Below are positions 1 through 59,875 of a DNA stretch of 64,000 bases, piece after piece. Each line of letters begins with the position of its first letter. The stretch's first letter is position 1. The translations under genes and the position numbers were made by a program. The DNA lies in the NCBI GenBank assembly GCA_043821445.1, contig JBDRCT010000010.1, positions 566-64,565 on the forward strand, given 5' to 3'. The stretch comes from Candidatus Omnitrophota bacterium (lineage in GTDB: Bacteria > Omnitrophota > Omnitrophia > Omnitrophales > Aquincolibacteriaceae). Under the pieces are notes generated by a model. It searched no databases and had not been told where the DNA came from. It was given only the letters and a program-made list of their open reading frames with translations.

Positions 1-540
1 GCTATTGAGATTAATCCTAAAAACGATAAACCCTATGTTGCATTAGGATGGCTTTATCAAGAGCGAGGCGACTTCTCCCAAGCCGAGGATTCCTACAGGA
101 AAGCTATTGAGATTAATCCTGAAAACGAGCACCTGCTTGGAGCAATGCCTTCATTGTATGAAAAAATGGATAACTCCGAACTGGCAAAAGAATATTTTAA
201 AAAAGCGAACCTGTTGAGAACAGAAAATTGTTCTGCAGTTACAGTAAACAGTTATCGAAAGCTCAAGGAGATTCTGGATGAAAAAGGGATTAAATTAGTT
301 TGTGTTCAGTACCCCATGCGCAATATAGAGCCACTCAAAAGGATCTTTGAGAGTGATAAAGGCGTTATCTTTGTCGATAATGAACGGATATTCAAGGACG
401 CGCTGAAGAAAGGACGTTACACGGAGTATTTTAAAGATATGTTTGCCATGGACTTTGGCCATTGCACTCGAAAGGGTAATATGCTTTTAGCCCAAAATAT
501 CGCTGATGTGATCCTCAAGGAAGTCTTTAACGAGTCGTAA
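1..540 (+). CDS. 3' part of a TPR-repeat/SGNH-hydrolase paralog (5' end lies outside the window). It ends with the SGNH block V-like motif DFGHCTRKGNMLLAQNIA.
   Basis: Frame 1 is open from base 1 to the TAA at 538-540. It translates to TPR units (AIEINPKNDKPYVALGWLYQ...) and a C-terminus almost identical to the three downstream paralogs. Confidence 0.85.
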   Translation, partial: AIEINPKNDKPYVALGWLYQERGDFSQAEDSYRKAIEINPENEHLLGAMPSLYEKMDNSELAKEYFKKANLLRTENCSAVTVNSYRKLKEILDEKGIKLVCVQYPMRNIEPLKRIFESDKGVIFVDNERIFKDALKKGRYTEYFKDMFAMDFGHCTRKGNMLLAQNIADVILKEVFNES

Positions 541-603
541 GACCGGCGTCGTGTCGATGATCGTTCTACTTGCTGGTTTAATGCAGAGCGTGTAAAAAAA
601 TTT

Positions 604-2268
604 ATGAATAACAGATTCATGAAAATGACAACCCCTATCTGGCAAAAAATAGCCCCCGTGCTATTGGGTTTGATTTTATCTCTCGCGCTTCTTGAGGCAG
701 GCCTGCGCTTAGGCGGGTTTATTTTTTCTTCAATACAAGCGTACGAAAATTTTCAATCCACAAAACAAAAAGGTACCTATCGTATTCTTTGTCTTGGGGA
801 GTCGACCACTCAAAGACAATACCCTCATCTTCTCGAGAAGGTCTTGAACCAGCGAAATATCGGAGTACGCTTCAGCGTTATCGATAAAGGGAGAGCAGTG
901 ATGAACACTATTACTCTGCTGGAGGGAATAGAATCTAATTTGGCTGAGTACCGTCCCGATATGGTGGTTGCGATGATGGGGATTAATGATCAAGGGACCA
1001 AATATTATCATACTATACCGAAGTCTGACACTTGGTTATTTAGGCACTGCCGAACCTATCGATTCGGTCGTATCCTCTTCATGCATATTTTAAAAAAGAT
1101 CAAACGAGAGGACATCGATGGATCCAACAAAGTAGATTCAAAAAGAAAAGCCCGGCCCAAAAATGCTGCGACTGTTTCTAAAAAAGCATATCTTTCGAAT
1201 GAAACATCCGTGAAGAAAGTTACCCAATTAAATTTGAAAGACGCAAAGGGAACCTACGGACCCCGAAGCCCTTCTCTAAGCCGTAGCGGGTTTGCTGAGA
1301 CTGAGGAATCCTTAAAGAAGGCCATTGAGCTTAATCCGGAAAACGATAAAGCCTATGTTGCATTAGGGTGGCTTTATCGAGATCAAAACAGATTAATCGA
1401 AGCCGAAGCCTCTCTCAAAAAAGCTATAGAGCTTAATCCTAAAAATGAGAATGCCCACGTAGATTTAGGGGGGCTTTATAAAAACCAGGGCAAATTCCAC
1501 CAAGCCGAGGATTGCTACAAGAAAGTCATCGAGATTAATCCTGGAAACGATAATACCTATGTTGAATTTGGGTGGCTTTATCGAGTTCAAGGAAACTTCA
1601 TCCTAGCTGAAGCCTTTTTTAGAAAAGCTCTAGAACTTAATCCTAAAAACGAGCATGCCTGCAATAGATTAGGATGGCTCTACTCCGATCAAGGCAAATT
1701 CGCTTTAGCAGAAGACTTCTACAAGAAAGCCGTCGCCCTTGATCCTAAGAACGACAATTCCTACTTTGCGTTAGGAGTGCTTTATCGGGATCATAGCCGA
1801 TTATCCCAGGCTGAAGATTCCTTCAGGAGGGCTTTCGAGATTAATCCTGACAACGAGCGTGCGCTTGGGGCCATGTCATCCTTGTACGAACAAATGGGTA
1901 AGCCCGAACTGGCAAAAGAATATGCCGAAAGGGCGAACGGGTTGAGATCAGAAGAGTGTTCTGCCGTTACAGTGAACAACTATCGAAAACTGAAAGATAT
2001 CCTGGACAGAAAAGGGATCAAACTTGTTTGCGTGCAGTATCCCGTGCGCAATGTGGAGCCACTCAAGAGAATCTTTGAGAAAGATAAAGGCGTTATCTTT
2101 GTCGATAATGAACGGGTATTCAAGGATGCGTTGAGAAAAGGAAGTTATAAAGAGTATTTTAAGGATATGTTTGCCGGTGACTTTGGCCATTGCACTCGAA
2201 AAGGCAATATGCTTTTAGCTCAAAATATCGCCGATGTGATCCTCAAGGAAGTCTTTAACAAGGAGTAA
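604..2268 (+). CDS. membrane-anchored SGNH/GDSL-family hydrolase with a TPR-repeat array inserted between catalytic blocks III and V (paralog 2)
   Basis: There is an N-terminal TM helix. Block I is LCLGESTT, block III is MMGINDQG, a K/S-rich linker follows, then about 8 TPR units (ALGWLYRDQ..AE..KKAIELNP), then block V GDFGHCTRKGNMLLAQNIADVI. Confidence 0.85.
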   Translation: MNNRFMKMTTPIWQKIAPVLLGLILSLALLEAGLRLGGFIFSSIQAYENFQSTKQKGTYRILCLGESTTQRQYPHLLEKVLNQRNIGVRFSVIDKGRAVMNTITLLEGIESNLAEYRPDMVVAMMGINDQGTKYYHTIPKSDTWLFRHCRTYRFGRILFMHILKKIKREDIDGSNKVDSKRKARPKNAATVSKKAYLSNETSVKKVTQLNLKDAKGTYGPRSPSLSRSGFAETEESLKKAIELNPENDKAYVALGWLYRDQNRLIEAEASLKKAIELNPKNENAHVDLGGLYKNQGKFHQAEDCYKKVIEINPGNDNTYVEFGWLYRVQGNFILAEAFFRKALELNPKNEHACNRLGWLYSDQGKFALAEDFYKKAVALDPKNDNSYFALGVLYRDHSRLSQAEDSFRRAFEINPDNERALGAMSSLYEQMGKPELAKEYAERANGLRSEECSAVTVNNYRKLKDILDRKGIKLVCVQYPVRNVEPLKRIFEKDKGVIFVDNERVFKDALRKGSYKEYFKDMFAGDFGHCTRKGNMLLAQNIADVILKEVFNKE

Positions 2269-2319
2269 GACCGGCGTCGTGCCGATGATCGTTCTACTTG
2301 CGGGTTTAATTTAGGGTAC

Positions 2320-4203
2320 ATGACAACATTTATGAATAAAGACGATTTTACACACGGGGTGGTCTCGATCTTCCGGAAAACGGTCATTGTTCTATCCAGC
2401 CTGATCTTATCTCTTGCGCTTCTTGAGGCAGGCCTGCGACTGGGCGGGTTTATTCTGTCCTCCATACAGGGGTCCGAGAATTTAAGATCCATCAAACAGA
2501 AAGGCGCTTATCGTATTCTCTGCTTGGGGGAGTCGACCACTGCGGGACAATATCCTCATCTTCTCGAGCAAGTCTTGAACCAGCGCAATACCGGGGTGCG
2601 GTTCAGCGTTATCGATAAAGGCAAGAGTGCTATAGACACCAATTTCCTACTCAATCGAGTCGAATCTTATTTGACCGAGTATCATCCCGATATGGTCGTT
2701 GCGATGATGGGAATGAATGATCAGGGTGTCAAATATTATGAAGACATACCGGAGTCTGATACCTGGTTATTTAGGCACTGCCGAACCTATCGATTCGGTC
2801 GGATCCTGTGCATGCACCTTTTAAAGAAACTCTTGGAAAAGGATGTCTACGGTTCAGACAGGGCAGATGGGAGGAGAAAGTCCAAGCTGAACGGCAAAGG
2901 GACGGCTATTGAAAAAGCAAATCTTTCGAATGGAACATCCAAAGAGAAAATGACTCGATCAGATTTGAATGACGCCAAGAGAACACCCGGACCCTCAAGC
3001 TCTTATCTAAACGGCGGCAGGATTTCCAAGACCGAGGAATCCTTCAAGAAAGCCATCGAGCTTGATCCTGAAAATGATAAGGCCTACGTTGAAATGGGGC
3101 AGCTTTATCGAGAGCGAGGCGAATTCCCCCAAGCCGAAGATTTCTTAGGGAAAGCCATTTTGCTTGATCCGGGAAACGATAAGGCCTACGCCGAATTAGA
3201 GAAACTTTATCGACTTCAAAGCAGAGTATTCCAGGCCGAAGACTTCTTTAAGAAAGCGATTGAGCTTGATCCTAAAAGCGCTAATGCCTATGTTGGATTA
3301 GGGAGATGTTACCTGCTTCAGGAAAAATTCTCCCTTGCCGAAGACTCCTTCGAGAAAACTATTGAGATTGATCCAAAAAACGCCAACGCCTATGTTGGAT
3401 TTGGGTGGCTTGATCGATTTCAAGACAAATTCCCCCAGGCTGAAGACTCCTTTAAGAAAGCGATTGAGCTTGATCCTGAAAACGCTAATGCCTATGTTGG
3501 ATTAGGGTGGCTTTATCGATTTCTAGACAAATCATCCCAGGCTGAAGCTTCTTTCAAAAAAGCTATCGAGCTTAATCCTGAATATGCTAGGGCCTACACG
3601 GAATTAGGGCAGCTTCATCAAGAGCGAGGCCAATTCCAACAAGCCGAAGACTTCTTCTGGGAAGCCATCAAGCTTGATCCTGAAAACCAGAATGCGTATC
3701 TTCCATTAGGGGGGCTTTATCGGCTTCAGGACAAATTCTCTGAGGCTGAGGATGTATTTAAGAAAGCCATCGCGATTAATCCTGAAAACGATCGCATACT
3801 TGGAGCGATGGCGCTGTTATGCAAGGAAATAGGCAAGCCCGAGCTGGCCAAAGAATATGCTAAAAAGGTAAATGAGCTGAGATCAGAGTATTATGCCCCG
3901 GTGACAGTCAATAACTATCGCAAGCTCAAGGAAATCCTGGATAAAAAAAGCATCCAACTGGTCTGCGTGCAGTATCCCGTGCGCAATGTGGAGCCACTCA
4001 AGAGAATCTTCGCGAAAGACAAAGGCGTTTTTTTCGTCGATAACGAGCGGGTATTCAAGGAAGCAATAAAGCAATCAGGTTATAATGAATATTTTAGAGA
4101 TATGTTCGGCGGTGACTTTGGCCATTGCACTCCAAAGGGTAATATGCTTTTAGCTCAAAATATCGCCGATATGATCCTAAGAGAGGTATTTAACAAGCGG
4201 TAA
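2320..4203 (+). CDS. membrane-anchored SGNH/GDSL-family hydrolase with inserted TPR array (paralog 3)
   Basis: Same architecture as 604..2268 (LCLGESTT, MMGMNDQG, TPR units, DFGHCTPKGNMLLAQNIADMI). The conserved ATG at 2332 (MNKDDF) may be the true start. Confidence 0.85.
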   Translation: MTTFMNKDDFTHGVVSIFRKTVIVLSSLILSLALLEAGLRLGGFILSSIQGSENLRSIKQKGAYRILCLGESTTAGQYPHLLEQVLNQRNTGVRFSVIDKGKSAIDTNFLLNRVESYLTEYHPDMVVAMMGMNDQGVKYYEDIPESDTWLFRHCRTYRFGRILCMHLLKKLLEKDVYGSDRADGRRKSKLNGKGTAIEKANLSNGTSKEKMTRSDLNDAKRTPGPSSSYLNGGRISKTEESFKKAIELDPENDKAYVEMGQLYRERGEFPQAEDFLGKAILLDPGNDKAYAELEKLYRLQSRVFQAEDFFKKAIELDPKSANAYVGLGRCYLLQEKFSLAEDSFEKTIEIDPKNANAYVGFGWLDRFQDKFPQAEDSFKKAIELDPENANAYVGLGWLYRFLDKSSQAEASFKKAIELNPEYARAYTELGQLHQERGQFQQAEDFFWEAIKLDPENQNAYLPLGGLYRLQDKFSEAEDVFKKAIAINPENDRILGAMALLCKEIGKPELAKEYAKKVNELRSEYYAPVTVNNYRKLKEILDKKSIQLVCVQYPVRNVEPLKRIFAKDKGVFFVDNERVFKEAIKQSGYNEYFRDMFGGDFGHCTPKGNMLLAQNIADMILREVFNKR

Positions 4204-4283
4204 GATTATCAGTATGCCGGCGGTCGCTCAGCCTGTGGGTTGAATTCAGGGTGCGGAAAAAATTATAGAAAAACTCCTTTAAA

Positions 4284-6131
4284 ATGACAATTTTGACTTG
4301 GCGGAAAACAACCGTAGGGTTCCTTAGGATAATTTTGTTTTTTGTGCTCTTGGAGATGGGATTGCGTTTTGGCGGGTTTGTCATGTTTTCGATACGAGAG
4401 TACGGAAATGTACAGTCCATAAAACAAAACGGCGCCTATCGCATTCTCTGCTTAGGAGAGTCCACCACCCGGGGACAATACCCTCATTTTCTCGAACAAA
4501 TCCTAAACCGGCGTAATGCCGGGGTGCGTTTCAACGTCATAGATAAAGGCAACGTCGCTGCAAACACCCTCTTTATATTAAATCAAATAGAATCTTATTT
4601 GGCCGAGTACCGTCCCGATATGGTCGTTGCAATGATGGGGAACAATGATGAGGGCATCAAATATTTCCAGGATATATCCGAGGCCGACACAGGGATCTTC
4701 CGGGATTGCCGGATCTATCGATTCGGCAGGATCCTCTATAGGTACCTTTTGCAGAAGATCAAGCGAGAGCACATCAATAAATCCAACAAAATGGATTCAA
4801 GTAGAAAAACCAAGTCAGAAGATGCGGGGAACGCTTCCAAAAGAGCAAATCTTTCGAATGAAACATCCGCAGAGAAAATAACAAAGTTAGATTTTAGGGG
4901 AAATGAAGCGAACCCCGGACCGAGAAGCTCTTATTTGAACCGCAGCAGGCTTCCTGAGGCCAAGAAATTGGCAGGGAAGGCCGCCGAGCTCCATCCGAAA
5001 AACGAAAATATTTATCTTAGATTAGGGGGGCTTTTTCGAGAGCAAGGCGAATTTCTCAAGGCCGAAAACTCTTTTAAGAAAGCCATCGAGATTGATCCTG
5101 AAAACGATGATGCCTGCATTGAATTGGGACGGCTTTATCTCGACCGTGGCAATTTATCACTAGCCGAAGATTCGTTTAAGAAAGCTATCGAGATTAATCC
5201 TGAAAGCAATAAGGCCTACGTGGATTTAGGGAGGCTTCATCGAGAGCAAGGTGAATTCCCCCGAGCCGAAGATTTATTCAAGAAAGCCATTGAGATTAAT
5301 CCTGAAAATGATGCGATCCGCGTGGATCTAGGGACGCTTTATCGCGATCAAGGGAAGTTTGTTCAAGCCGAAAATCTATTTAAGAAAGCTATCGAACTTA
5401 ATCCCCAAAATAATCACGCTTATGGCGAACTAGGAAGGCTTTATCAAATTCAATTTAAAAAATCCGAACTCGGAGACCTCTTTAAGAAAGCTATCGAGCT
5501 TAATCCGGAAAACGATTACGCCTACTTTGAATTAGGGTGCCTTTATAAAGAACAAAGGGAGTTCTTTCAAGCCGAAAACCTATTTACGAAAACCATTGAG
5601 CTTAATCCGGAAAATGATCTTGCCTACGCTGAATTGGGCCGGCTTTATCGAGAACAAGGCAAATTGCCTCAAGCCGAAGACATGTTTAAGAAAGCTATCG
5701 AACTTGATCCTAAAAATGAGCGCGTGCTTAGGGCCATGTCATCGTTATACGAAGAGACAGGCAAACCCGAACTAGCGAAAGAATATACTGAAAAGGCAAG
5801 CAGGTTGAGATCAGCGCGTTATGCTGCGATCACAGTTAATAACTTTCGAAAGCTGAAAAAAATCCTGGATAGAGAAGGGATCAAACTGGTTTGTGTGCAG
5901 TATCCTTTACGTAATGTGGAACCGTTAAAGAAAATATTCGAGAACGATAAGGGCGTTATCTTTGTAGATAATGAGAGCGTATTCAAGGAAGCACTGAAGA
6001 AAGATAGCTACAAAGAGTATTTTTGGGATATGTTCGCCGGTGACTTCGGCCATTGCACCCCCAAAGGCAATTTGCTTTTAGCTCAAAATATCGCCGATGT
6101 GATCCTTAAGGAAGTATTTAACAAGCAGTAA
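4284..6131 (+). CDS. membrane-anchored SGNH/GDSL-family hydrolase with inserted TPR array (paralog 4)
   Basis: Same architecture (LCLGESTT, MMGNNDEG, TPR units, GDFGHCTPKGNLLLAQNIADVI). Confidence 0.85.
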   Translation: MTILTWRKTTVGFLRIILFFVLLEMGLRFGGFVMFSIREYGNVQSIKQNGAYRILCLGESTTRGQYPHFLEQILNRRNAGVRFNVIDKGNVAANTLFILNQIESYLAEYRPDMVVAMMGNNDEGIKYFQDISEADTGIFRDCRIYRFGRILYRYLLQKIKREHINKSNKMDSSRKTKSEDAGNASKRANLSNETSAEKITKLDFRGNEANPGPRSSYLNRSRLPEAKKLAGKAAELHPKNENIYLRLGGLFREQGEFLKAENSFKKAIEIDPENDDACIELGRLYLDRGNLSLAEDSFKKAIEINPESNKAYVDLGRLHREQGEFPRAEDLFKKAIEINPENDAIRVDLGTLYRDQGKFVQAENLFKKAIELNPQNNHAYGELGRLYQIQFKKSELGDLFKKAIELNPENDYAYFELGCLYKEQREFFQAENLFTKTIELNPENDLAYAELGRLYREQGKLPQAEDMFKKAIELDPKNERVLRAMSSLYEETGKPELAKEYTEKASRLRSARYAAITVNNFRKLKKILDREGIKLVCVQYPLRNVEPLKKIFENDKGVIFVDNESVFKEALKKDSYKEYFWDMFAGDFGHCTPKGNLLLAQNIADVILKEVFNKQ

Positions 6132-19807: not shown

Positions 19808-20773
19808 ATGAACAAGCCCATAGGTTTCTTATTTCCGGGGCAAGGCGCTCAATTCGTGGGCATGGGCAAAGATCTTTATGCCACGAGCCCGGCCGCTTGC
19901 GCACTTTATAAAAAAGCCGAGGGGATCCTGGGCTACTCCATCAGCCAAATTTGCTTTGCCGGACCCGAAAAAGAATTGACGCGCACCCTTTATGCTCAAA
20001 CCGGTATCCTGGTCACAAGCCTTGCCGCCCTCGCGGCGCTTCGTGAAAAATACCCGGATCTTACGCCCTCGATCGTCGCGGGTTTAAGCTTGGGTGAGTT
20101 CACGGCATTAGCCGCCGCGGGAGCGATCTCCTTTGAAGATGCGTTGAAACTTGTGCAAGTCCGCGCCGAAGCGATGGAAGACGCGGCCAAGAACAACCCG
20201 GGAACCATGGCCTTCATTATGGGACTTACAGTTGAACAATGCCTGGGGGTGGCCAAGGAGGCAGGTTGTGAGATCGCAAATCTCAATGCGCCGGACCAAA
20301 CAGTGCTTTCCGGAACTCTTCTGACCATAGAACTAGCCTGCAAGATCGCCGAAGCCAAGGGCGCCAAGCGTGCAATGCCGCTTAAAGTCGGTGGCGCTTT
20401 TCATTCCTCCCTCATGGCTGAGGCGAAAGCGCGACTTGAAGCCGCGCTTGTCAGTGCTCCGATCCATGAACCCAAATGCGCTTTTATTCCCAATGTTACG
20501 GCTCAAAAAGTCTCAAATCCCAAAGAGATCCGGACTCTTCTTGCAAAACAACTCACGAGTCCGGTCCAGTGGGTCCAGACCATGGCGACCGCCAAAGAAT
20601 CCGGGACCACCCTTTATCTGGAGATCGGTCCCGGAAAGATCCTCAAAGGACTGGCGCGCAAGTGCCAGCCGGAATTTGAAGTTTTTTCGTTTGGTTCCGC
20701 GACCGATTTCAAAAGTCTTGAATCGCCTGGGTTATTGGAAAAATCATCACGCATAGAGGACCTGCCCCGTTAG
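19808..20773 (+). CDS. fabD: malonyl CoA-ACP transacylase
   Basis: FLFPGQGAQ, GLSLGEF. The last codons LPR-stop fall inside the repeat arm CCCCGTTAGAG. Confidence 0.9.
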   Translation: MNKPIGFLFPGQGAQFVGMGKDLYATSPAACALYKKAEGILGYSISQICFAGPEKELTRTLYAQTGILVTSLAALAALREKYPDLTPSIVAGLSLGEFTALAAAGAISFEDALKLVQVRAEAMEDAAKNNPGTMAFIMGLTVEQCLGVAKEAGCEIANLNAPDQTVLSGTLLTIELACKIAEAKGAKRAMPLKVGGAFHSSLMAEAKARLEAALVSAPIHEPKCAFIPNVTAQKVSNPKEIRTLLAKQLTSPVQWVQTMATAKESGTTLYLEIGPGKILKGLARKCQPEFEVFSFGSATDFKSLESPGLLEKSSRIEDLPR

Positions 20774-20859
20774 AGTCTTAAAAAACTCTAAGCGGGATTA
20801 CGAAAGATAACATAAATAAAAAACCAGGGTCTTGCAGACATCTCGAGACTCTAACGGGG
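20765..20859. repeat. 95 bp element bounded by a perfect 14 bp inverted repeat CCCCGTTAGAGTCT / AGACTCTAACGGGG (fabD-fabG junction)
   Basis: The arms were read directly from the sequence. The left arm contains the fabD stop codon and the right arm supplies the GGGGG RBS of fabG. Confidence 0.6.
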
Positions 20860-20867
20860 GAACAACC

Positions 20868-21611
20868 ATGATGCTGAAAGATAAAGTTGCGCTTGTAACG
20901 GGTGCCGGTCGCGGGATCGGTCAGGCGATCGCACTCGCGTTCGCAAAAGAAGGTGCCATTCTGGTGCTTTCGGACCTCAAAACCGAGTTTTTGACGGAGA
21001 CCGAGACCCTCGCAAAACAGGCGGGATCCCCGAAATGTGTTTTGACGCAAGCTAATGTGGCTAATGGGGATGAAGTGGAGCAAGTCGTCAAAATCTCCCT
21101 TGACACCTTTGAGCGCATCGATATACTCGTCAACGTTGCGGGCATTACGAAGGACGGGTTGCTCGCCACCATGTCCGAACAGGACTGGGACGATGTTCTT
21201 TCGATCAATTTGAAAAGCGCATTCCTCTTCACGAAGGCGTGCGCAAGGCCCATGATGAAGCAGCGTGCCGGAACGATCATCAATATCGCTTCCATCATCG
21301 GGATCGCCGGGAATGCCGGGCAGGCGAATTATGCGGCCTCGAAGGGGGGCATGATCGCTTTGACGAAAAGCACGGCGAAAGAGTTGGCTAAACGGAACAT
21401 TCGGGCCAACGCGATCGCTCCGGGATTCATCAAAAGTAAGATGACCGATAAGCTGCCGCCGGATCTGGTTGAGAAAATGAAGGAACGGATCGGGCTCAGG
21501 CGTCTCGGAGAGCCTCAAGATGTGGCGAATGTTGCCGTATTTTTGGCATCGGAAGCATCAGCCTATGTCACCGGACAGACCATCGTCGTGGATGGTGGAC
21601 TTGTACTCTGA
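20868..21611 (+). CDS. fabG: 3-oxoacyl-ACP reductase
   Basis: KVALVTGAGRGIGQAIA; the SDR catalytic region (..YAASKGG..) is present. The ATG at 20868 is used. Confidence 0.95.
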   Translation: MMLKDKVALVTGAGRGIGQAIALAFAKEGAILVLSDLKTEFLTETETLAKQAGSPKCVLTQANVANGDEVEQVVKISLDTFERIDILVNVAGITKDGLLATMSEQDWDDVLSINLKSAFLFTKACARPMMKQRAGTIINIASIIGIAGNAGQANYAASKGGMIALTKSTAKELAKRNIRANAIAPGFIKSKMTDKLPPDLVEKMKERIGLRRLGEPQDVANVAVFLASEASAYVTGQTIVVDGGLVL

Positions 21612-32544: not shown

Positions 32545-33810
32545 ATGCAAGTGCTCAATTGGGACAAACAAACGCAGAAAAAGATCCGGCGTGACTATTC
32601 CACGTTCTTTGATACGGCCATCTTTAAAAAGGTAAATCGCATCCTCTCTGAAGTGCGTCAGTCCGGGGACACGGCGCTTCGCCGCTACACCCGCGAATTC
32701 GACGGGATCGACCTTCCGCTCAAACGGCTCGCCGTCACCCAGGGAGACATCAACCGCGCGTTCGAGAAGATCCAGGTCCCGTTCGTCCCGCTCCTCAAGC
32801 AGATCACGGAAAATGTCCGCGAATATTACGAAAAAGAACTGAAGAAGTCGTTTGAGATCACGGGACCCAACGGCGTGCACCTCGGTAAGCGGTACGAACC
32901 GCTGGACCGGGTGGGGATCTACATCCCCGCAGGGACCGCACCGCTTGTTTCGACCGTCTACATGACCGTCATCCCCGCGAAGGTCGCGGGCGTGAAACAG
33001 ATCGCCATTGTGACGCCGCCTCGCCGCGACACCGGCGATATTGATCCTCATATCCTGGCGGTCGCAAATCTTTTGGGCGTGAATGAAATTTATCGCGTGG
33101 GCGGCGTCCAGGCCATCGGCGGGCTCGCGTTCGGCACCAAGACCATTCCCAAAGTCGATAAGATCGTCGGCCCGGGCAATGCCTATGTTACCGAGGCCAA
33201 ACGCCAGGTTTACGGCTTTGTGGATATCGATATGGTCGCCGGTCCGAGCGAAGTGGCCATCATCGCGGACGCGGACGCAAATCCGGATTTTCTCACCTGC
33301 GATCTTCTCGCCCAGACCGAACATCACGGCGGCATGGGATACCTCATCACCAATTCCAAAAAACTGGTCGAAGTCATGCGCAAGCGCGTAGACACCGGCA
33401 TCATCATCCAGGTCAAAACCATAGCGGAAGCCTGCGAAGTCGCCAACGAGATCGCGGCCGAACACCTAGAGATCATGACCGAGGAACCCGAAAAAGTGGC
33501 TCAATCGGTCCGCCATGCGGGCGCGATCTTCCTCGGGCCCTATTCGCCGACCGTGATCGGGGATTATATCGCGGGACCGAGCCACGTGCTCCCGACGGGC
33601 GGCACCGCGCGTTATTTCTCGCCGCTCAGCGCATCGACTTTCATCAAGAGCTCCCAGGTCATTTGCTATACTCCCGAGGCGCTGGAGGCCGCAAAGACGC
33701 ATGTCCAGAAACTGACGGACATGGAAGGCCTCTTCCTGCACCGTATCTCCCTGGAGGCACGCCTTATCAAAAAGAATGCAGAACTGGAAAAGGAATCCTT
33801 GCCCCGTTAG
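32545..33810 (+). CDS. hisD: histidinol dehydrogenase
   Basis: The hisD core is present (..AGPSEVAIIADADANP.., TEHHGG..). The terminal LPR-stop lies inside the repeat arm CCCCGTTAGAG. Confidence 0.9.
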   Translation: MQVLNWDKQTQKKIRRDYSTFFDTAIFKKVNRILSEVRQSGDTALRRYTREFDGIDLPLKRLAVTQGDINRAFEKIQVPFVPLLKQITENVREYYEKELKKSFEITGPNGVHLGKRYEPLDRVGIYIPAGTAPLVSTVYMTVIPAKVAGVKQIAIVTPPRRDTGDIDPHILAVANLLGVNEIYRVGGVQAIGGLAFGTKTIPKVDKIVGPGNAYVTEAKRQVYGFVDIDMVAGPSEVAIIADADANPDFLTCDLLAQTEHHGGMGYLITNSKKLVEVMRKRVDTGIIIQVKTIAEACEVANEIAAEHLEIMTEEPEKVAQSVRHAGAIFLGPYSPTVIGDYIAGPSHVLPTGGTARYFSPLSASTFIKSSQVICYTPEALEAAKTHVQKLTDMEGLFLHRISLEARLIKKNAELEKESLPR

Positions 33811-33901
33811 AGATTCATAGGACCGAACCAACGGGAAGAAATATCATTTTTGAAAGAATTATGACGGACCATTTTTAAAATACAGTTAATCTCTAACGGG
33901 G
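33802..33901. repeat. 100 bp element bounded by a perfect 14 bp inverted repeat CCCCGTTAGAGATT / AATCTCTAACGGGG (hisD-hisB junction)
   Basis: It shares the 11 bp core CCCCGTTAGAG with the fabD element. The left arm contains the hisD stop and the right arm ends 6 nt before the hisB ATG. Confidence 0.6.
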
Positions 33902-33907
33902 TAAATC

Positions 33908-34504
33908 ATGAAAGCTAGAAAGGCCGCGGTCAAACGCAAGACTTCCGAAACCGAAATTCAGATCGAGTTCACGGTGGATGGACAAGGATCGTCAAAGATC
34001 GATACCCGGATCCCGTTCCTCGACCACATGCTGACGCTCCTCGCTAAACACGGGCTCTTTGATCTCAAGCTCAAGGCGCGGGGAGACCTGGAAGTCGATA
34101 TCCATCACACCAATGAGGACATCGGGATCGTTCTCGGCCAGGCCCTGACGAAGGCTCTGGGGAACAAAAAGGGGATCTACCGCTACGGCTCTTTTGCCGT
34201 CCCGATGGACGAGGCGCTCGTTCGCGTCACGCTCGACATTTCCGGAAGACCTTCGTTTTATGTGACAAAAGCCAGGGGGGTGCATCTCTCCCGCCAGCCG
34301 AAGTACTCGTTCGATGACGCTGTCGATTTTCTGCGTTCCTTCTGCCAACACGCGGGCATCAACATGCACATCGGCGTCCTCGCAGGGGAAGACACGCATC
34401 ACATTATCGAAGGCATGTTCAAAGGGATCGCCAAGACCCTGGACATGGCGACCCGTCTCGATCCTCGCGTTCTTGGGATCCCCTCGACCAAGGGAAAGCT
34501 TTAA
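33908..34504 (+). CDS. hisB: imidazoleglycerol-phosphate dehydratase
   Basis: IDTRIPFLDHMLTLLAKHGLFDL, HHIIEGMFKGIAK. Confidence 0.9.
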   Translation: MKARKAAVKRKTSETEIQIEFTVDGQGSSKIDTRIPFLDHMLTLLAKHGLFDLKLKARGDLEVDIHHTNEDIGIVLGQALTKALGNKKGIYRYGSFAVPMDEALVRVTLDISGRPSFYVTKARGVHLSRQPKYSFDDAVDFLRSFCQHAGINMHIGVLAGEDTHHIIEGMFKGIAKTLDMATRLDPRVLGIPSTKGKL

Positions 34505-44244: not shown

Positions 44245-44386
44245 GGCCGGGAGACTTTGCCGCCGTCAACGGCGGTTCGTCGTCTCCTGCGGCCGACGCC
44301 CGCCTGCGCTCTCGCGCTTCGACCCTCCGATAGAGGGACCAAGCTCGAAGCGCTCCGAGAGCTGACTTCGTCAAAGTCTCCCGGCC
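44245..44386. repeat. 15 bp perfect inverted repeat GGCCGGGAGACTTTG / CAAAGTCTCCCGGCC enclosing a nested hairpin (44314..44354) in the HK-RR spacer
   Basis: The arms lie at 44245-44259 and 44372-44386. The inner hairpin is gcgcttcga-ccctccgatagagggaccaagc-tcgaagcgc. Confidence 0.55.
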
Positions 44387-46470: not shown

Positions 46471-46852
46471 CTATTTTTATAAACGCTTCGGTCTTTGCGG
46501 GACAAACCCAGATGATAATAGTTGTTTTATCGAACAAAAGCAACCCTTGAACTATGGGGCTTTTCCATGAGCTTATTCCTTTCGATCCACTATGCTAGAA
46601 TGATGCTACACTACGTTGCTGCTCCGCTGATTTTGATACCAACGGATGCAACCGGATACTAACGGATACAAAAGGGGAGGGGGAGCCGTTCAGAGTTTCC
46701 GGGGACCCCGCAAATGGACCGCTTAGACTTCTACTTAATTCCGTCGCCCGCGACGAAATTGACTCGCATGAAGAGCAGGCGTCCTGCGGGTGGGCAAAAA
46801 ACGCGGCGCCGCGTAAATTGAACGGGGAGAAAAATCAGGTGTCCTACGGGTG

Positions 46853-46900
46853 CCGTCCCAACTCTTATCAATTTCAACAAAGTTGAAATTGGGGCGGTCC
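46853..46900. repeat. intergenic palindromic repeat element, same family (copy C)
   Basis: ccgtccca..atcaatttcaac-aaa-gttgaaattggggcggtcc. Confidence 0.5.
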
Positions 46901-47022
46901 TTGGTACCATTGATCAAAAGAAATGAAAACCAAGGGCCGTATATCATATAAGATATATGGATAGAGACGCAAACCACTACCCAAAACGGCCGCCGGCGGC
47001 TGAATTGACCCGGTAGAAAGAT

Positions 47023-51640: not shown

Positions 51641-51694
51641 GCGGTCCCAATACCGATCAATCGAAGCGTAGCCGAGATTGGGGCCGTCCCAATT
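51641..51694. repeat. intergenic palindromic repeat element, same family (copy D)
   Basis: gcggtcccaataccgatcaatcgaagcgtagccgagattggggccgtcccaatt matches 56669..56722 apart from 6 substitutions. Confidence 0.65.
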
Positions 51695-51715
51695 ATCATT
51701 TTTGAAAAAAAAACT

Positions 51716-56650: not shown

Positions 56651-56722
56651 GGCAGCCCCAATTTCCGCTTTGCGGTCCCAATCCCAATCAATCGAAGCGA
56701 AGCTGAGATTGGGGCCGTCCAA
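56651..56722. repeat. intergenic palindromic repeat element, family GGACGGCCCCAATTT / AAATTGGGGCCGTCC (copy E)
   Basis: This copy is about 90% identical over ~54 bp to copy D at 51641..51694. It shares the GGGGCCGTCC, GTCCCAAT and CCCCAATTT words with copies at 18748..18798, 29309..29395 and 46853..46900. Confidence 0.65.
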
Positions 56723-56821
56723 ACTGCCATTTTGGAAAAGAAATAAAAAGTTTGGGCGGAAATTGATAAGTATTGGGACCGGCTTCCCGATGTTTTCTCT
56801 AATAGAAAGCCGGGTGCCCTG

Positions 56822-58753
56822 ATGCAATTCTTCCGACCGGAGTATTTCTTTTATTTGTGGCTGGTCCCGACGGTCCTGGTGTTCTATATTTTTTCGCGCA
56901 AGCTCTGGCAGAAGCGCCTTCACCGGCTGGTCCGGGATGAAGCGCTCCTTTCGAAATTGATCGAGGGCTACCGGAAAAGCGAGTGGCTTGTCCGCGCGGT
57001 CCTCATGACGCTTGCCGTGCTTTGTTTCGTGCTCGCGCTCGCGCGTCCGCAATGGGGGGATGAAAAACGTACGGCCCAGCGCAAGGGCCTGGACATCGTC
57101 TTCATGGTCGACACGTCCCTCAGCATGCTCGCCGAGGACATCAAACCCAATCGCCTCGGAAAAGCCAAATTCGAGGTCGAGACATTCATCCGTAACCTTC
57201 GCGGCGACCGCGTCGGTATGATCACTTTCGCGGGCTCGGGGTTCCTGCAGACCCCGCTCACGCTCGACCACGCCGCGTTCCTCTTGTTCCTGGACGCCGT
57301 CCAGGTGGGATTCCTGCCCGACCCCGGAACGTCGCTCACCCAGGCCATCCAACTGGCGATCCGTGCCTTTCCTCAAAAGGAACTCAAATACAAGGCCCTG
57401 GTCCTCTTTACGGACGGGGAGGACCATGGGGGCGGGATCGAAAAGGCCATCGAAGCGGCCAAGCAGGCCAATGTGAGGATCTATTGCATAGGCCTCGGGA
57501 CCGCGGAAGGAGAGCCTATCCCCCTCAAGAACGAAAAAGGGGAGCGCTCGGGATTCAAGAAGGACCGCAGCGGACAAATGGTGCTCACCCGCCTCAACAA
57601 GCCGCTTCTGGAACGGCTCGCCAGAGAAACGGGCGGGATCTATCTTCCCGCGACGCCCGGCGAGAAAGAAGTCGAGGTCATCTTAAAACACATGCGCGGA
57701 TGGGGGGAGCAGCAGTTTGCCGAAAAAGAGGTCGTGGAACGCGAAGACCAGTACCAGGTGTTCCTGATCTTCGCGTTGATCCTTCTCGTCGCCGAAATGC
57801 TGGTCCGTCGCAAAAACAGCAAAGGCCCGGACCTGATGGTCTGCCTCGCCGCTTTTTTCCTTTTTACGGGATTTCTCGAGACCTCGCAGAGCACGGTCAA
57901 AAAGGGCAACGAACATTTTCAGAACAAGCGCTATCAGTCCGCCCTGGAGGCCTACCGGAAGGTCCAGGTCAAGAAGCCCGACGCTCCGGAAGTGCTTTAT
58001 GATCTCGGAACGGCCCTTTATAAGACCGACGCCTTCCAGGAATCCGCTCAGCACCTCGAGACCGCTTCCAAGACGGCCAAGGACACGCAGCTGAAGGCCC
58101 GCGCACTCTATAACACCGGGAATGCCCAGTACCGGCTCGGGAATTTCGAGGGGGCCATTGATTCCTACAAGAAAGCCCTCGAACTGGATCCGGACGACAA
58201 AGACGCCAAATACAATCTCGAATTCCTGCAAAAGCAGAAGAACAAGATCGATAAAAAAGACCAGGAGCAGAAGAAAGAAGATCAGAAAAAGAAAGACGAG
58301 CAAAAGCAAGATCAACAGAAAAATAAGCAAGATCAGCAGAAACAAAAGGATCAGGGGCAGGGGAAGGACCAAAAGCAACAGCCCAAGCCCGATCAACAGG
58401 ATCAAGAACAACAACCCAAGCCTCAGGACCAGCAAGATCAGGAACAACAGCAACAGCAGAAAGAACAGCAGGAAAAAGAACAGCAACAGAAGGAACAGGA
58501 GCAAAAAGAAAAAGAAGAACAGCAAAAGCAGCAAGAGCAACAGAAGCAACAGAAGGAACAGGAAGAACAGCAAGAACAGAAAAGCCCTCAAGAAGAGCGT
58601 AGCGGAGAGCAAAAACGTCCGCTCCAGGGTCAAATGAGCATGGAAAATGCCCTCAACATTCTTGACGCCATGAAAGAATCCGAGAAGGAGCTCCAGGACC
58701 TTCGACGGCCGCCGGTCAACAAGAATCCGCCGCCCGTGGAAAAAGACTGGTAG
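56822..58753 (+). CDS. vWA + TPR fusion membrane protein (BatB/BatC-like) with a ~130 aa Q/K/E/D low-complexity tail
   Basis: A vWA domain (VFMVDTSLSM) and TM helices are followed by TPR units (ALYNTGNAQYRLGNFEGAIDSYKKALELDP) and then a KQ/EQ-rich repeat. Confidence 0.8.
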   Translation: MQFFRPEYFFYLWLVPTVLVFYIFSRKLWQKRLHRLVRDEALLSKLIEGYRKSEWLVRAVLMTLAVLCFVLALARPQWGDEKRTAQRKGLDIVFMVDTSLSMLAEDIKPNRLGKAKFEVETFIRNLRGDRVGMITFAGSGFLQTPLTLDHAAFLLFLDAVQVGFLPDPGTSLTQAIQLAIRAFPQKELKYKALVLFTDGEDHGGGIEKAIEAAKQANVRIYCIGLGTAEGEPIPLKNEKGERSGFKKDRSGQMVLTRLNKPLLERLARETGGIYLPATPGEKEVEVILKHMRGWGEQQFAEKEVVEREDQYQVFLIFALILLVAEMLVRRKNSKGPDLMVCLAAFFLFTGFLETSQSTVKKGNEHFQNKRYQSALEAYRKVQVKKPDAPEVLYDLGTALYKTDAFQESAQHLETASKTAKDTQLKARALYNTGNAQYRLGNFEGAIDSYKKALELDPDDKDAKYNLEFLQKQKNKIDKKDQEQKKEDQKKKDEQKQDQQKNKQDQQKQKDQGQGKDQKQQPKPDQQDQEQQPKPQDQQDQEQQQQQKEQQEKEQQQKEQEQKEKEEQQKQQEQQKQQKEQEEQQEQKSPQEERSGEQKRPLQGQMSMENALNILDAMKESEKELQDLRRPPVNKNPPPVEKDW

Positions 58754-59366: not shown

Positions 59367-59875
59367 CCCCAAATCACGCCAAGTTGCCCCGATCGAGCGA
59401 CTTTCTCTCCCTATAGGCTAGTTTACATAAGATACATTATGGGACGTACGTTAAGCTGGCCGAGGGATCCTTCTCTACAGCTCGCTGTGTTCTGAGCATG
59501 AAACTCTGCAGGAAAAACATATCGCACGGAATGCGGCGTTTAACTCCCAGGCAAAAGTTTTTCAATGTCCCAGCTTGTTTTCCCCGTTAGCGATAAAGCT
59601 GCGCGACACTTTGCAGTTACTTAGGGATTGCGCGGCACGCATACGCCATTTACGCGCGTACGCCTCTGGAAATGTAAGGGGCTCTTTCTCTCCTGTCTTG
59701 ACCCTAACCTAGAGAGGACTCCCCTATAGCGGAAATGACCCTTTTAAAGGGCCTATAGGAGGGGCTCTTCTATGGAATGGCCTATAAGGGACCCGATTTT
59801 GACCCAAACCGTCAAAATACCATGATTTTGCGCGGTTTTAGGCCATTCTTATGGGGAGTTTGTAGGAGAAGGTAT

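Follow-up and report, generated by a model that had tools for sequence, protein, structure and literature searches.

Two hairpin-ended insertions at operon junctions of an Omnitrophota bacterium, probably members of a small mobile family whose full-size units carry a GIY-YIG nuclease gene

Within a 64,000-nucleotide stretch of a Candidatus Omnitrophota genome (assembly GCA_043821445.1, contig JBDRCT010000010.1, positions 566 to 64,565 of the forward strand; hereafter the window), two short units with inverted-repeat ends, which we call E1 and E2, stand at the junctions of fabD with fabG and of hisD with hisB. Comparison with relatives, other genomes and metagenomes leaves us with little doubt that both are mobile-element insertions of one family, and we consider it likely, with clearly less assurance, that they are copies lacking an open reading frame (ORF) of a small mobile family whose full-size members carry a GIY-YIG nuclease gene. 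An earlier note, made from the sequence of the window, had described the two units as resembling MITEs (miniature transposable elements with inverted repeats) or, alternatively, as a conserved operator or terminator motif; our analyses supported the MITE-like description and spoke against the alternative.

Evaluating the ends of the units within the window revealed four exact copies of the 11-mer CCCCGTTAGAG, which form two inverted pairs at 20765-20859 and 33802-33901, where chance would yield about 0.03 matches (an arithmetic estimate over 128,000 positions on both strands). The 8-mer core CCCGTTAG was likewise in excess, with five window matches against 1.36 expected and none of 100 shuffles getting to five. 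Matches to the 11-mer with up to two mismatches occurred at the chance level (15 against 14.45 expected), so that the window holds just two units. The third, single arm that the earlier note had listed at 59582 fell away, having no partner, an nhmmer E-value of 5-7, and about one match at no more than one mismatch expected by chance. The features of the two units, and this solitary match, are as follows.

20765..20859, + strand: E1, ORF-less hairpin-ended unit of 95 nt between fabD and fabG; site empty in relatives
20765..20777, + strand: E1 5' terminal inverted repeat of 13 nt, CCCCGTTAGAGTC; holds the fabD stop TAG at 20771-20773
20847..20859, + strand: E1 3' terminal inverted repeat, GACTCTAACGGGG; lies within the stem of the predicted RNA fold
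20786..20796, - strand: degenerate internal arm of E1, CCCGCTTAGAG; forms a 32-nt mini-hairpin with the 5' arm and is kept in locus L094
33802..33901, + strand: E2, ORF-less hairpin-ended unit of 100 nt at the hisD/hisB junction; site empty in relatives
33802..33814, + strand: E2 5' terminal inverted repeat, CCCCGTTAGAGAT; holds the hisD stop TAG at 33808-33810
33889..33901, + strand: E2 3' terminal inverted repeat, ATCTCTAACGGGG; 6 nt upstream of the hisB ATG at 33908
59582..59592, + strand: solitary arm-like 11-mer with one mismatch, CCCCGTTAGCG, partnerless; probably a chance match outside the family

The arms of E1 (20765-20778, CCCCGTTAGAGTCT; 20846-20859, AGACTCTAACGGGG) are complementary at 14 of 14 positions across a spacing of 67 nt, as are those of E2 (33802-33815, CCCCGTTAGAGATT; 33888-33901, AATCTCTAACGGGG) across 72 nt, where the inverted repeat can be extended to 17 nt at 94%. 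The three base pairs past the common core differ between E1 and E2, yet are complementary in each. Folding of the RNA gave long stems (14-17 bp) at both sites, where the earlier note had anticipated one of 14 bp, with -35.2 kcal/mol (z=-4.2) for the E1 region and -31.9 kcal/mol (z=-2.5) for the E2 region, and a fold of E1 as single-stranded DNA gave z=-3.3. Neither unit contains an ORF, and the first 34 nt of E1 are common to units at other genes in loci L094 and L036, which thus belong to the same subfamily.

We next turn to the junctions themselves, whose genes all lie on the forward strand.

19808..20773, + strand: fabD (ACP S-malonyltransferase), 321 aa; stop TAG inside the E1 5' arm
20868..21611, + strand: fabG; ATG 8 nt past E1
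32545..33810, + strand: hisD; stop TAG inside the E2 5' arm, product ending ESLPR
33908..34504, + strand: hisB; ATG 6 nt past E2

In close relatives (88-91% nucleotide identity) both junctions are empty, the fabD/fabG unit being absent from L120-L125 and the hisD/hisB unit from L126 and L127. Five contigs whose FabD is 79-89% identical show a fabD-fabG gap of 18-22 nt (..AAATCA TAA cgatAAGGAGaatggctc ATGATG) with an AAGGAG Shine-Dalgarno sequence ahead of fabG, and the closest of the relatives (L120, 91% DNA identity) aligns to window position 20751 and resumes at 20867. At hisD/hisB, relatives with 93-96% protein identity have the stop and start codons overlapping (..TCCAAATCATGA..) or 2 nt apart, and L126 aligns to 33799 and resumes at 33905. 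The net gain at each window site relative to the empty relatives is the unit plus 4-5 nt. As the sites are empty and the alignments break exactly at the units, E1 and E2 are both insertions. An LPR ending is also seen in one HisD at a greater distance (P0145, 91%), whose site, judging from a 117-nt gap to hisB in the gene table, appears to be occupied.

The claim that the units sit precisely at gene 3' ends held in part. Both stop codons do lie as TAG within the 5' arms and E2 sits in the hisD stop/hisB start overlap, but E1 sits 24 nt past the ancestral fabD stop, between the former fabG Shine-Dalgarno sequence and the ATG. That ancestral stop has changed from TAA to TCA in the window (20747-20749), which adds eight codons (SRIEDLPR) up to the arm-encoded TAG; most of the FabD orthologues listed have 313 aa and end in KS. 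For hisD, the last two codons are replaced by an arm-encoded LPR, the product ending ESLPR where those of relatives end ESKS or ES, so that the FabD and HisD C-termini both read LPR. The loss of the fabD TAA and the swapped HisD tail would fit selection for terminating inside the stem, although they could also be neutral; by estimate one frame in three meets the TAG of the arm. On the downstream side, the former Shine-Dalgarno sequence lies directly 5' of the stem base at each site, and the G-run of the 3' arm comes to lie 6-8 nt upstream of the start codon (GGGGGaacaaccATG for fabG, GGGGtaaatcATG for hisB), and in E1 the GGGG of the arm joins the next G into a GGGGG that resembles a Shine-Dalgarno sequence and stands 7 nt ahead of the fabG ATG (20868). 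The right flank GAACA is common to E1 and to L094 3478-3490 and L139 420-431, all in Omnitrophota-like contexts with an ATG 0-3 nt further on, which probably reflects the convergent making of a GGGGGA ribosome-binding site.

The earlier note had also proposed a search for further genomic copies, and these proved abundant, so that, with the empty junctions, the outcome which the note had named as refuting its view did not arise. Scanning one genome per species for CCCCGTTAGAG followed after 55-85 nt by CTCTAACGGGG revealed at least 119 genome loci with these ends, in at least ten phylum-level groups; the loci of this and a further, metagenomic scan are cited here by number (L001 and onward). 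Hosts listed include many Patescibacteria lineages, Omnitrophota, Planctomycetota, Nitrospirota and Elusimicrobiota, as well as Bdellovibrionales, Desulfobacterota, two gammaproteobacterial metagenome-assembled genomes (MAGs), one Actinomycetota MAG, WOR-3 and others, and the viral contigs scanned held zero copies. Interiors of the units are unrelated between genomes and common within a genome, with some subfamilies crossing genomes. Among the matches listed, the conserved inverted repeat is exactly 13 bp, that is CCCCGTTAGAG plus two complementary bases: position 12 is paired in 86-98% of units and position 13 in 90-92% though all four bases occur there (28% in shuffles), whereas from position 14 onward pairing is at background. 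The perfect 14-bp repeat described for the window is thus real in its own arms and one base longer than what the family conserves. At the position two bases outside the stem, pairing is less frequent than chance would have it (0.12 against 0.28 in short units and 0.22 against 0.34 in the ORF-bearing units described below; L001-L248).

Target-site duplications, which the earlier note had suggested looking for, are evident across the short units. Identical direct repeats of exactly 4 nt flank 77 of the 129 units listed, compared to a mean of 9 and a maximum of 21 in shuffles, and after dereplication identical flanks remain in 33 of 66 groups. Flanks favor Y-N-N-R, more specifically targets of the G|TNAA type. 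In three prepilin-gene insertions the codons for G-F-T-L-I-E are rebuilt only by removing the unit together with one TTTA (a target lying within GG-TTTA-C), so that at these pilin sites the 4-nt duplication is real; one of the three stays in frame (80+4 = 84 nt), and the N_methyl match is weak. Tandem arrays in L004 and L016 have a 4-nt spacer (CTCA/TGAG), and nested units with flank repeats of their own occur in L041, L097 and L073. At the small end of the range stand 22 free-standing mini units, 23-41 nt in length and most often 29 nt, a size that corresponds to a 3-nt loop, and two units hold complete tRNA genes, for Thr-CGT and Ala-CGC, exactly between the two arms. The flanks of one of these (L007) resemble the two halves of another, interrupted tRNA gene. 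Positions relative to genes vary: among 114 MITE-size units listed, a long ORF ends at the arm TAG in 21 and one starts within 20 nt past the unit in 28-42, counts that have no null expectation to be set against, and units are found inside coding sequences too. Coordinates for the arrays, prepilin insertions and tRNA-carrying units are given here.

L004 2942-3105 and 6121-6200; L016 7-223; L011 6334-6425 and 6918-7021: tandem arrays or prepilin-gene insertions at TTTA
L007 4971-5060; L085 5895-6000: units carrying a tRNA gene

What connects these ORF-less units to a candidate enzyme is a set of longer units with the same arms. Long arm-bounded units among the genome loci listed are only L078 785-1063 (279 nt), L001 3773-4160 (about 277 nt, with a further unit nested in it) and one in L009, and each of the three is filled by a small GIY-YIG ORF. 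In these genomes, from Omnitrophota, Saccharibacteria and Daviesbacteria, ORF-bearing and ORF-less units occur side by side. A metagenome scan for arms 245-270 nt apart then revealed at least 120 loci with 124 units, among which, as listed, 48 are exactly 279 nt and 107 are 275-281 nt long, and 109 contain an intact GIY-YIG ORF of 85-87 residues. The 253-nt loop of a 279-bp unit is nearly all taken up by the 86-codon gene, which starts 17-23 nt from one unit end and whose last four codons, TCT CTA ACG GGG (S-L-T-G), are the other arm itself; the stop codon (TGA or TAA) is formed by the first three flank bases in 68 of 102 ORF units. The ORF units are themselves found near the 3' ends of ORF6N-like genes in related contigs, where they occupy three sites no farther than about 150 bp away, each of them empty in the other contigs, and these empty counterparts mark them as polymorphic insertions in their own right. 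An in-frame fusion of the nuclease ORF with the tail of a host gene in L225 gives a 118-aa product that resembles P0365.

L225 4043-4321; L230 4579-4857; L157 6593-6871; L144 2437-2715: ORF units near ORF6N-like genes

The 95 distinct nuclease proteins have a mean identity of 72% (range 55-99%), and the diversity at the three codon positions of the ORF (0.24/0.16/0.52) points to purifying selection. Profile comparison placed the protein in the Pfam GIY-YIG family PF01541 (E=3e-15, above the cut-off), and it matched the structures 1zg2 (UPF0213 protein BH0048, E=4e-10) and 1ywl (EF2693, E=0.004) in the PDB. A consensus of 88 sequences retains the Y..Y, YTG, R, H and E motifs. By sequence, then, the nuclease is assigned to the minimal SLX1-like (UPF0213) branch of the GIY-YIG superfamily, and database names for it are 'GIY-YIG nuclease family protein', 'putative endonuclease' and 'excinuclease ABC subunit C'. 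Standalone UPF0213/SLX1-like proteins (BH0048, EF2693 and E. coli YhbQ) belong to the same sequence family as the unit ORF, but they are annotated as housekeeping or of unknown function, whereas the unit ORF is bounded by inverted repeats in a mobile context.

Taken together, the family presents one pair of ends around variable loops, which comprise 3 nt, the 253-nt nuclease stretch or, in units of MITE size, unrelated sequence of 50-130 nt that in some cases is a tRNA gene. We infer, with confidence only a little above even, that the GIY-YIG protein of the 279-bp units is the mobilizing enzyme. SLX1 cuts branched and stem-loop DNA as a structure-specific nuclease, which would fit a hairpin substrate, and the unit nuclease would act in trans on any DNA bounded by two arms, probably reading the stem as a structure, either as a hairpin in single-stranded DNA or as a cruciform. 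Recognition of structure is suggested because position 13 covaries instead of being fixed and because SLX1-type enzymes are structure-specific. Insertion would proceed through 4-nt staggered breaks whose repair yields the flanking repeat. The stronger proposal, that the 279-bp units are autonomous transposons whose sole gene is an 86-residue SLX1-like nuclease recognizing its own 13-bp hairpin or cruciform ends, is one we hold tentatively and at somewhat less than even confidence.

In the window, E1 and E2 landed in tight operon junctions, and the host genes have accommodated them, their stops moving to the TAG of the arm. At the level of the mRNA, the stem may loop the insert out and so restore the old spacing from Shine-Dalgarno sequence to AUG (about 6 nt for hisB and 12 nt for fabG), or it may hide the G-rich mimic of a ribosome-binding site until the stem is melted by a ribosome that terminates in the 5' arm, which would make the G-run available for re-initiation. 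These two readings are not exclusive, and ancestral translational coupling would be kept either way.

Several observations weigh against this account and temper the confidence given above. The GIY-YIG gene was found neither in the window nor in its 76-kb contig, and the interiors of E1 and E2 have no homology to the ORF units beyond the termini, so that they are not simple deletion derivatives of them. The flanks of E1 (CCTG/GAAC) and of E2 (CTTG/TAAA) are non-identical 4-mers, although the net gain at both sites is the unit plus 4-5 nt. Among ORF-size units, direct flank repeats occur in only 15 of 102, the flanks instead favoring 'crossed' combinations (TTTA..TGAA and TTCA..TAAA); an idea that the flank 4-mers travel with the element was rejected, since nearest-neighbor nucleases share them only at the rate expected by chance. 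The cuts known from characterized GIY-YIG enzymes give 1-2-nt 3' overhangs or single nicks and not staggers of 4 nt. The coupling or loop-out role of the mRNA stem, which draws only on positions and folding, is in our view possible but a little short of an even chance.

The most developed rival explanation holds that the arms are the ends used by a conventional DDE transposase, for which an IS1380/piggyBac-like enzyme is the best candidate, that E1 and E2 are MITEs derived from such an insertion sequence, and that the GIY-YIG gene is cargo or a hitch-hiker. IS1380/piggyBac elements do make a 4-bp duplication at A/T-rich targets of the TNAA/TTAA type and have ends starting CC(C), much as the units have a 4-nt flanking duplication and ends beginning with CC, and an IS1380 copy in a Nitrospirota MAG (L128) has repeats (CCTTGTAGTTGC.../CCTTAACGTTGC...) with a G-preceded TAAA duplication, which is the target type of the short units. 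Interiors unrelated to the ORF units would also fit arbitrary DNA captured between two ends. Yet neither the genome loci (about 800 kb) nor the metagenome loci (about 600 kb) yielded a transposase bounded by the arms, and the IS1380 copy has inverted repeats different from the arms.

L128 1170-2687; also L076 6529-8000: IS1380-family element of a Nitrospirota MAG, repeats CCTTGTAGTTGCATAAA / CCTTAACGTTGCATAAA, with a G-preceded 4-bp TAAA duplication

This element was the sole IS1380 in a profile search of all loci, which led us to reject an IS1380-derived MITE, and it was also the one transposase near solo arms, its differing ends being traced via the homologue and contig. A search for autonomous elements among arm pairs 400-6000 bp apart with matching flanks in the genome loci returned only composites of small units. 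Furthermore, finding the same GIY-YIG ORF in 109 of the 124 long units listed, with C-terminal codons built from the arm, is unexpected for random cargo, and the covariation at position 13 argues that structure and not sequence is recognized. We therefore regard the DDE explanation as unlikely. Similarly unlikely, in our estimation, is a spread without a dedicated enzyme, for instance through replication template switching, structure-specific nucleases of the host or single-stranded DNA taken up by the cell; the GIY-YIG gene would then be a selfish, homing-type colonizer of hairpins already in place. Such a history would suit the differing flank patterns of MITE-size and ORF-size units, the mini units being simple perfect hairpins, and the failure of flank 4-mers to track nuclease phylogeny. 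It sits poorly with a single 13-bp end across distant phyla, which calls for a specific and horizontally mobile recognizer, and with an ORF and arms that have co-evolved as a unit whose length stayed at 279 +/- 3 nt even where protein identity falls to 55%.

Two further explanations appear far less probable. If the arms were a conserved host regulatory motif (an operator, an RNase III or stabilizer stem, or a device for translational coupling), one would understand why stable stems coincide exactly with stop/start junctions, why each site has its stop codon in the 5' arm and why inner pairs covary; units are, however, absent from the same junctions in close relatives, lie beside or inside unrelated genes across phyla, and occur nested and in tandem. 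A promoter scan had no match at E1 or E2, and a search of the whole window against Rfam 15 gave no match at gathering score, nor did the surroundings of the two units give any at E<=1. An intrinsic terminator was rejected, as there is no terminator-like site at E1 or E2, the loops are 67-72 nt long and the tails (GAACAACC and TAAATC) are no T-tracts. A purely regulatory motif is thus highly improbable, and given that the units are of a mobile type in their distribution, any regulatory effect would be secondary (exaptation). Equally remote, and if anything slightly more so, is the idea that the units are REP/REPIN-like hairpin doublets moved by RAYT, an IS200-like Y1 HUH transposase. Like REP/BIME/REPIN elements, the units are inverted doublets that form hairpins and lie at the 3' ends of genes in operons, and in both cases a small nuclease gene of few copies probably moves them in trans; RAYT-like genes (NF047646, below cut-off) occur in 5 of the 119 loci listed, directly beside units in L076 and L116. 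By estimate, however, 5 of 119 eight-kb stretches is about the usual copy number and no clear enrichment, and these genes are not bracketed by arms. REP systems are species-specific, lack a 4-nt duplication and carry GTAG at the hairpin foot, whereas the units have GTTAG inside the stem, no GTAG box, a 4-nt duplication, an 11-mer shared across phyla, and a GIY-YIG rather than an HUH nuclease inside the arms. On these grounds both the RAYT assignment and the REP signature were rejected.

With the rivals weighed, we return to the family of mobile units with a GIY-YIG partner and its place among known systems. E1 and E2 fit the structural definition of MITEs, in that they are short, have no ORF, end in terminal inverted repeats, are absent from the same sites in relatives and belong to a family of many copies; the candidate for an arm-bounded partner is the GIY-YIG nuclease of the 279-bp units with the same ends, and no DDE partner was found in the fetched loci. 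Prokaryotic MITEs such as Correia/NEMIS of Neisseria, MITEAba12 and Nezha share with the family its small size, lack of ORFs, inverted repeats, short duplications, copy number and strain polymorphism, as well as insertion in operon spacers with a possible effect on expression. Known MITEs, however, take their ends from DDE insertion sequences of one lineage, whereas here the GIY-YIG gene is the only one found between the ends, interiors hold cargo of unrelated sequence, the 13th position of the repeat is a covarying one and the ends are identical across many phyla. Rickettsia palindromic elements (RPEs) are, like the units, palindromes of about 100 nt that can insert in frame and be translated, traits seen here in the 84-nt insertion in prepilin genes and the arm-encoded LPR tails of FabD and HisD; outside Rickettsia RPEs are not known, nor is an enzyme known to go with them, and we liken them here by description and not by sequence.

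Homing endonucleases of the GIY-YIG type (I-TevI, Seg) resemble the units as selfish GIY-YIG nuclease genes. They differ in having a C-terminal DNA-binding domain, one cognate target and a place in introns or between conserved phage genes, with no inverted-repeat ends or ORF-less derivatives, and this class was rejected for a protein of 86 residues that comprises only the catalytic domain, scores 23 bits against TIGR01453 where the cut-off is 56, stands at many unrelated sites and occurs in none of the viral contigs. Integron attC sites were rejected as well, the core order being reversed on both strands (GTTAGAG on the 5' side and CTCTAAC on the 3' side, against 5'-RYYYAAC...GTTRRRY-3' in attC), and the window ORFs around E1 and E2 contained no cassette array or integrase. 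We know of no prokaryotic insertion-sequence family with a GIY-YIG-type partner gene. In the literature covered, which lay mostly outside subscription journals, there was no relevant occurrence of the 11-mer, no link of GIY-YIG proteins to bacterial inverted-repeat or MITE elements, and no mobile, inverted-repeat-bounded context for a UPF0213/SLX1-like gene. A survey of the superfamily had remarked on standalone SLX1-like domains and on one 'very recently inserted' GIY-YIG domain in HsdR (Dunin-Horkawicz et al. 2006, PMC1564403). What we report is accordingly a MITE-like element with an unprecedented candidate partner, of which an earlier description is possible in the subscription journals, most of them beyond that literature.

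The window also contains repeats other than the units described. A separate family of direct repeats of about 72 nt (GCGGTCCCAAT..GAGATTGGGGCCGTCC) lies at 46852-46923, 51641-51712 and 56672-56743, two of the copies being 86% alike, with an inverted partner at 56673-56692 / 56762-56781; it is unrelated to the CCCCGTTAGAG arms and is probably what the earlier note counted as its first repeat family. Positions 1-6000 hold three paralogous segments of about 1.9 kb made of 102-nt (34-codon, TPR-like) repeats with 70-75% identity in self-alignment, and 58240-58590 is a low-complexity K/E/Q-rich coding repeat inside a 643-aa ORF at 56822-58753. The longest inverted repeat of the window is found at 44245-44268 / 44363-44386 (24 nt, 88% complementary, 94 nt apart).

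Prokaryotic insertion-sequence families are known to use DDE, DEDD, HUH, serine or tyrosine enzymes. If the GIY-YIG protein does move the units, its nuclease chemistry would be new to these families, and the size limit for an autonomous mobile element would fall below 300 bp, making the 279-bp units the smallest self-mobilizing elements known. A 13-bp stem and an 86-residue structure-guided nuclease might in that case also offer a minimal tool for DNA insertion. For annotation, the 11-mer arms flag insertions that alter gene ends, as in the LPR tails on FabD and HisD and the displaced ribosome-binding sites. Should the autonomous reading prove true, the units would represent a new enzymatic class of prokaryotic DNA transposon that spreads across Patescibacteria, Omnitrophota and further phyla, and E1 and E2 would be MITEs of that class without cargo. 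A GIY-YIG protein that moves the units would further assign a role to part of the UPF0213/YhbQ family, which is large and unexplained, and would account for a repeat met again and again in streamlined genomes of uncultivated, ultra-small bacteria, in which pilin genes, tRNA genes and operon junctions are interrupted by it.

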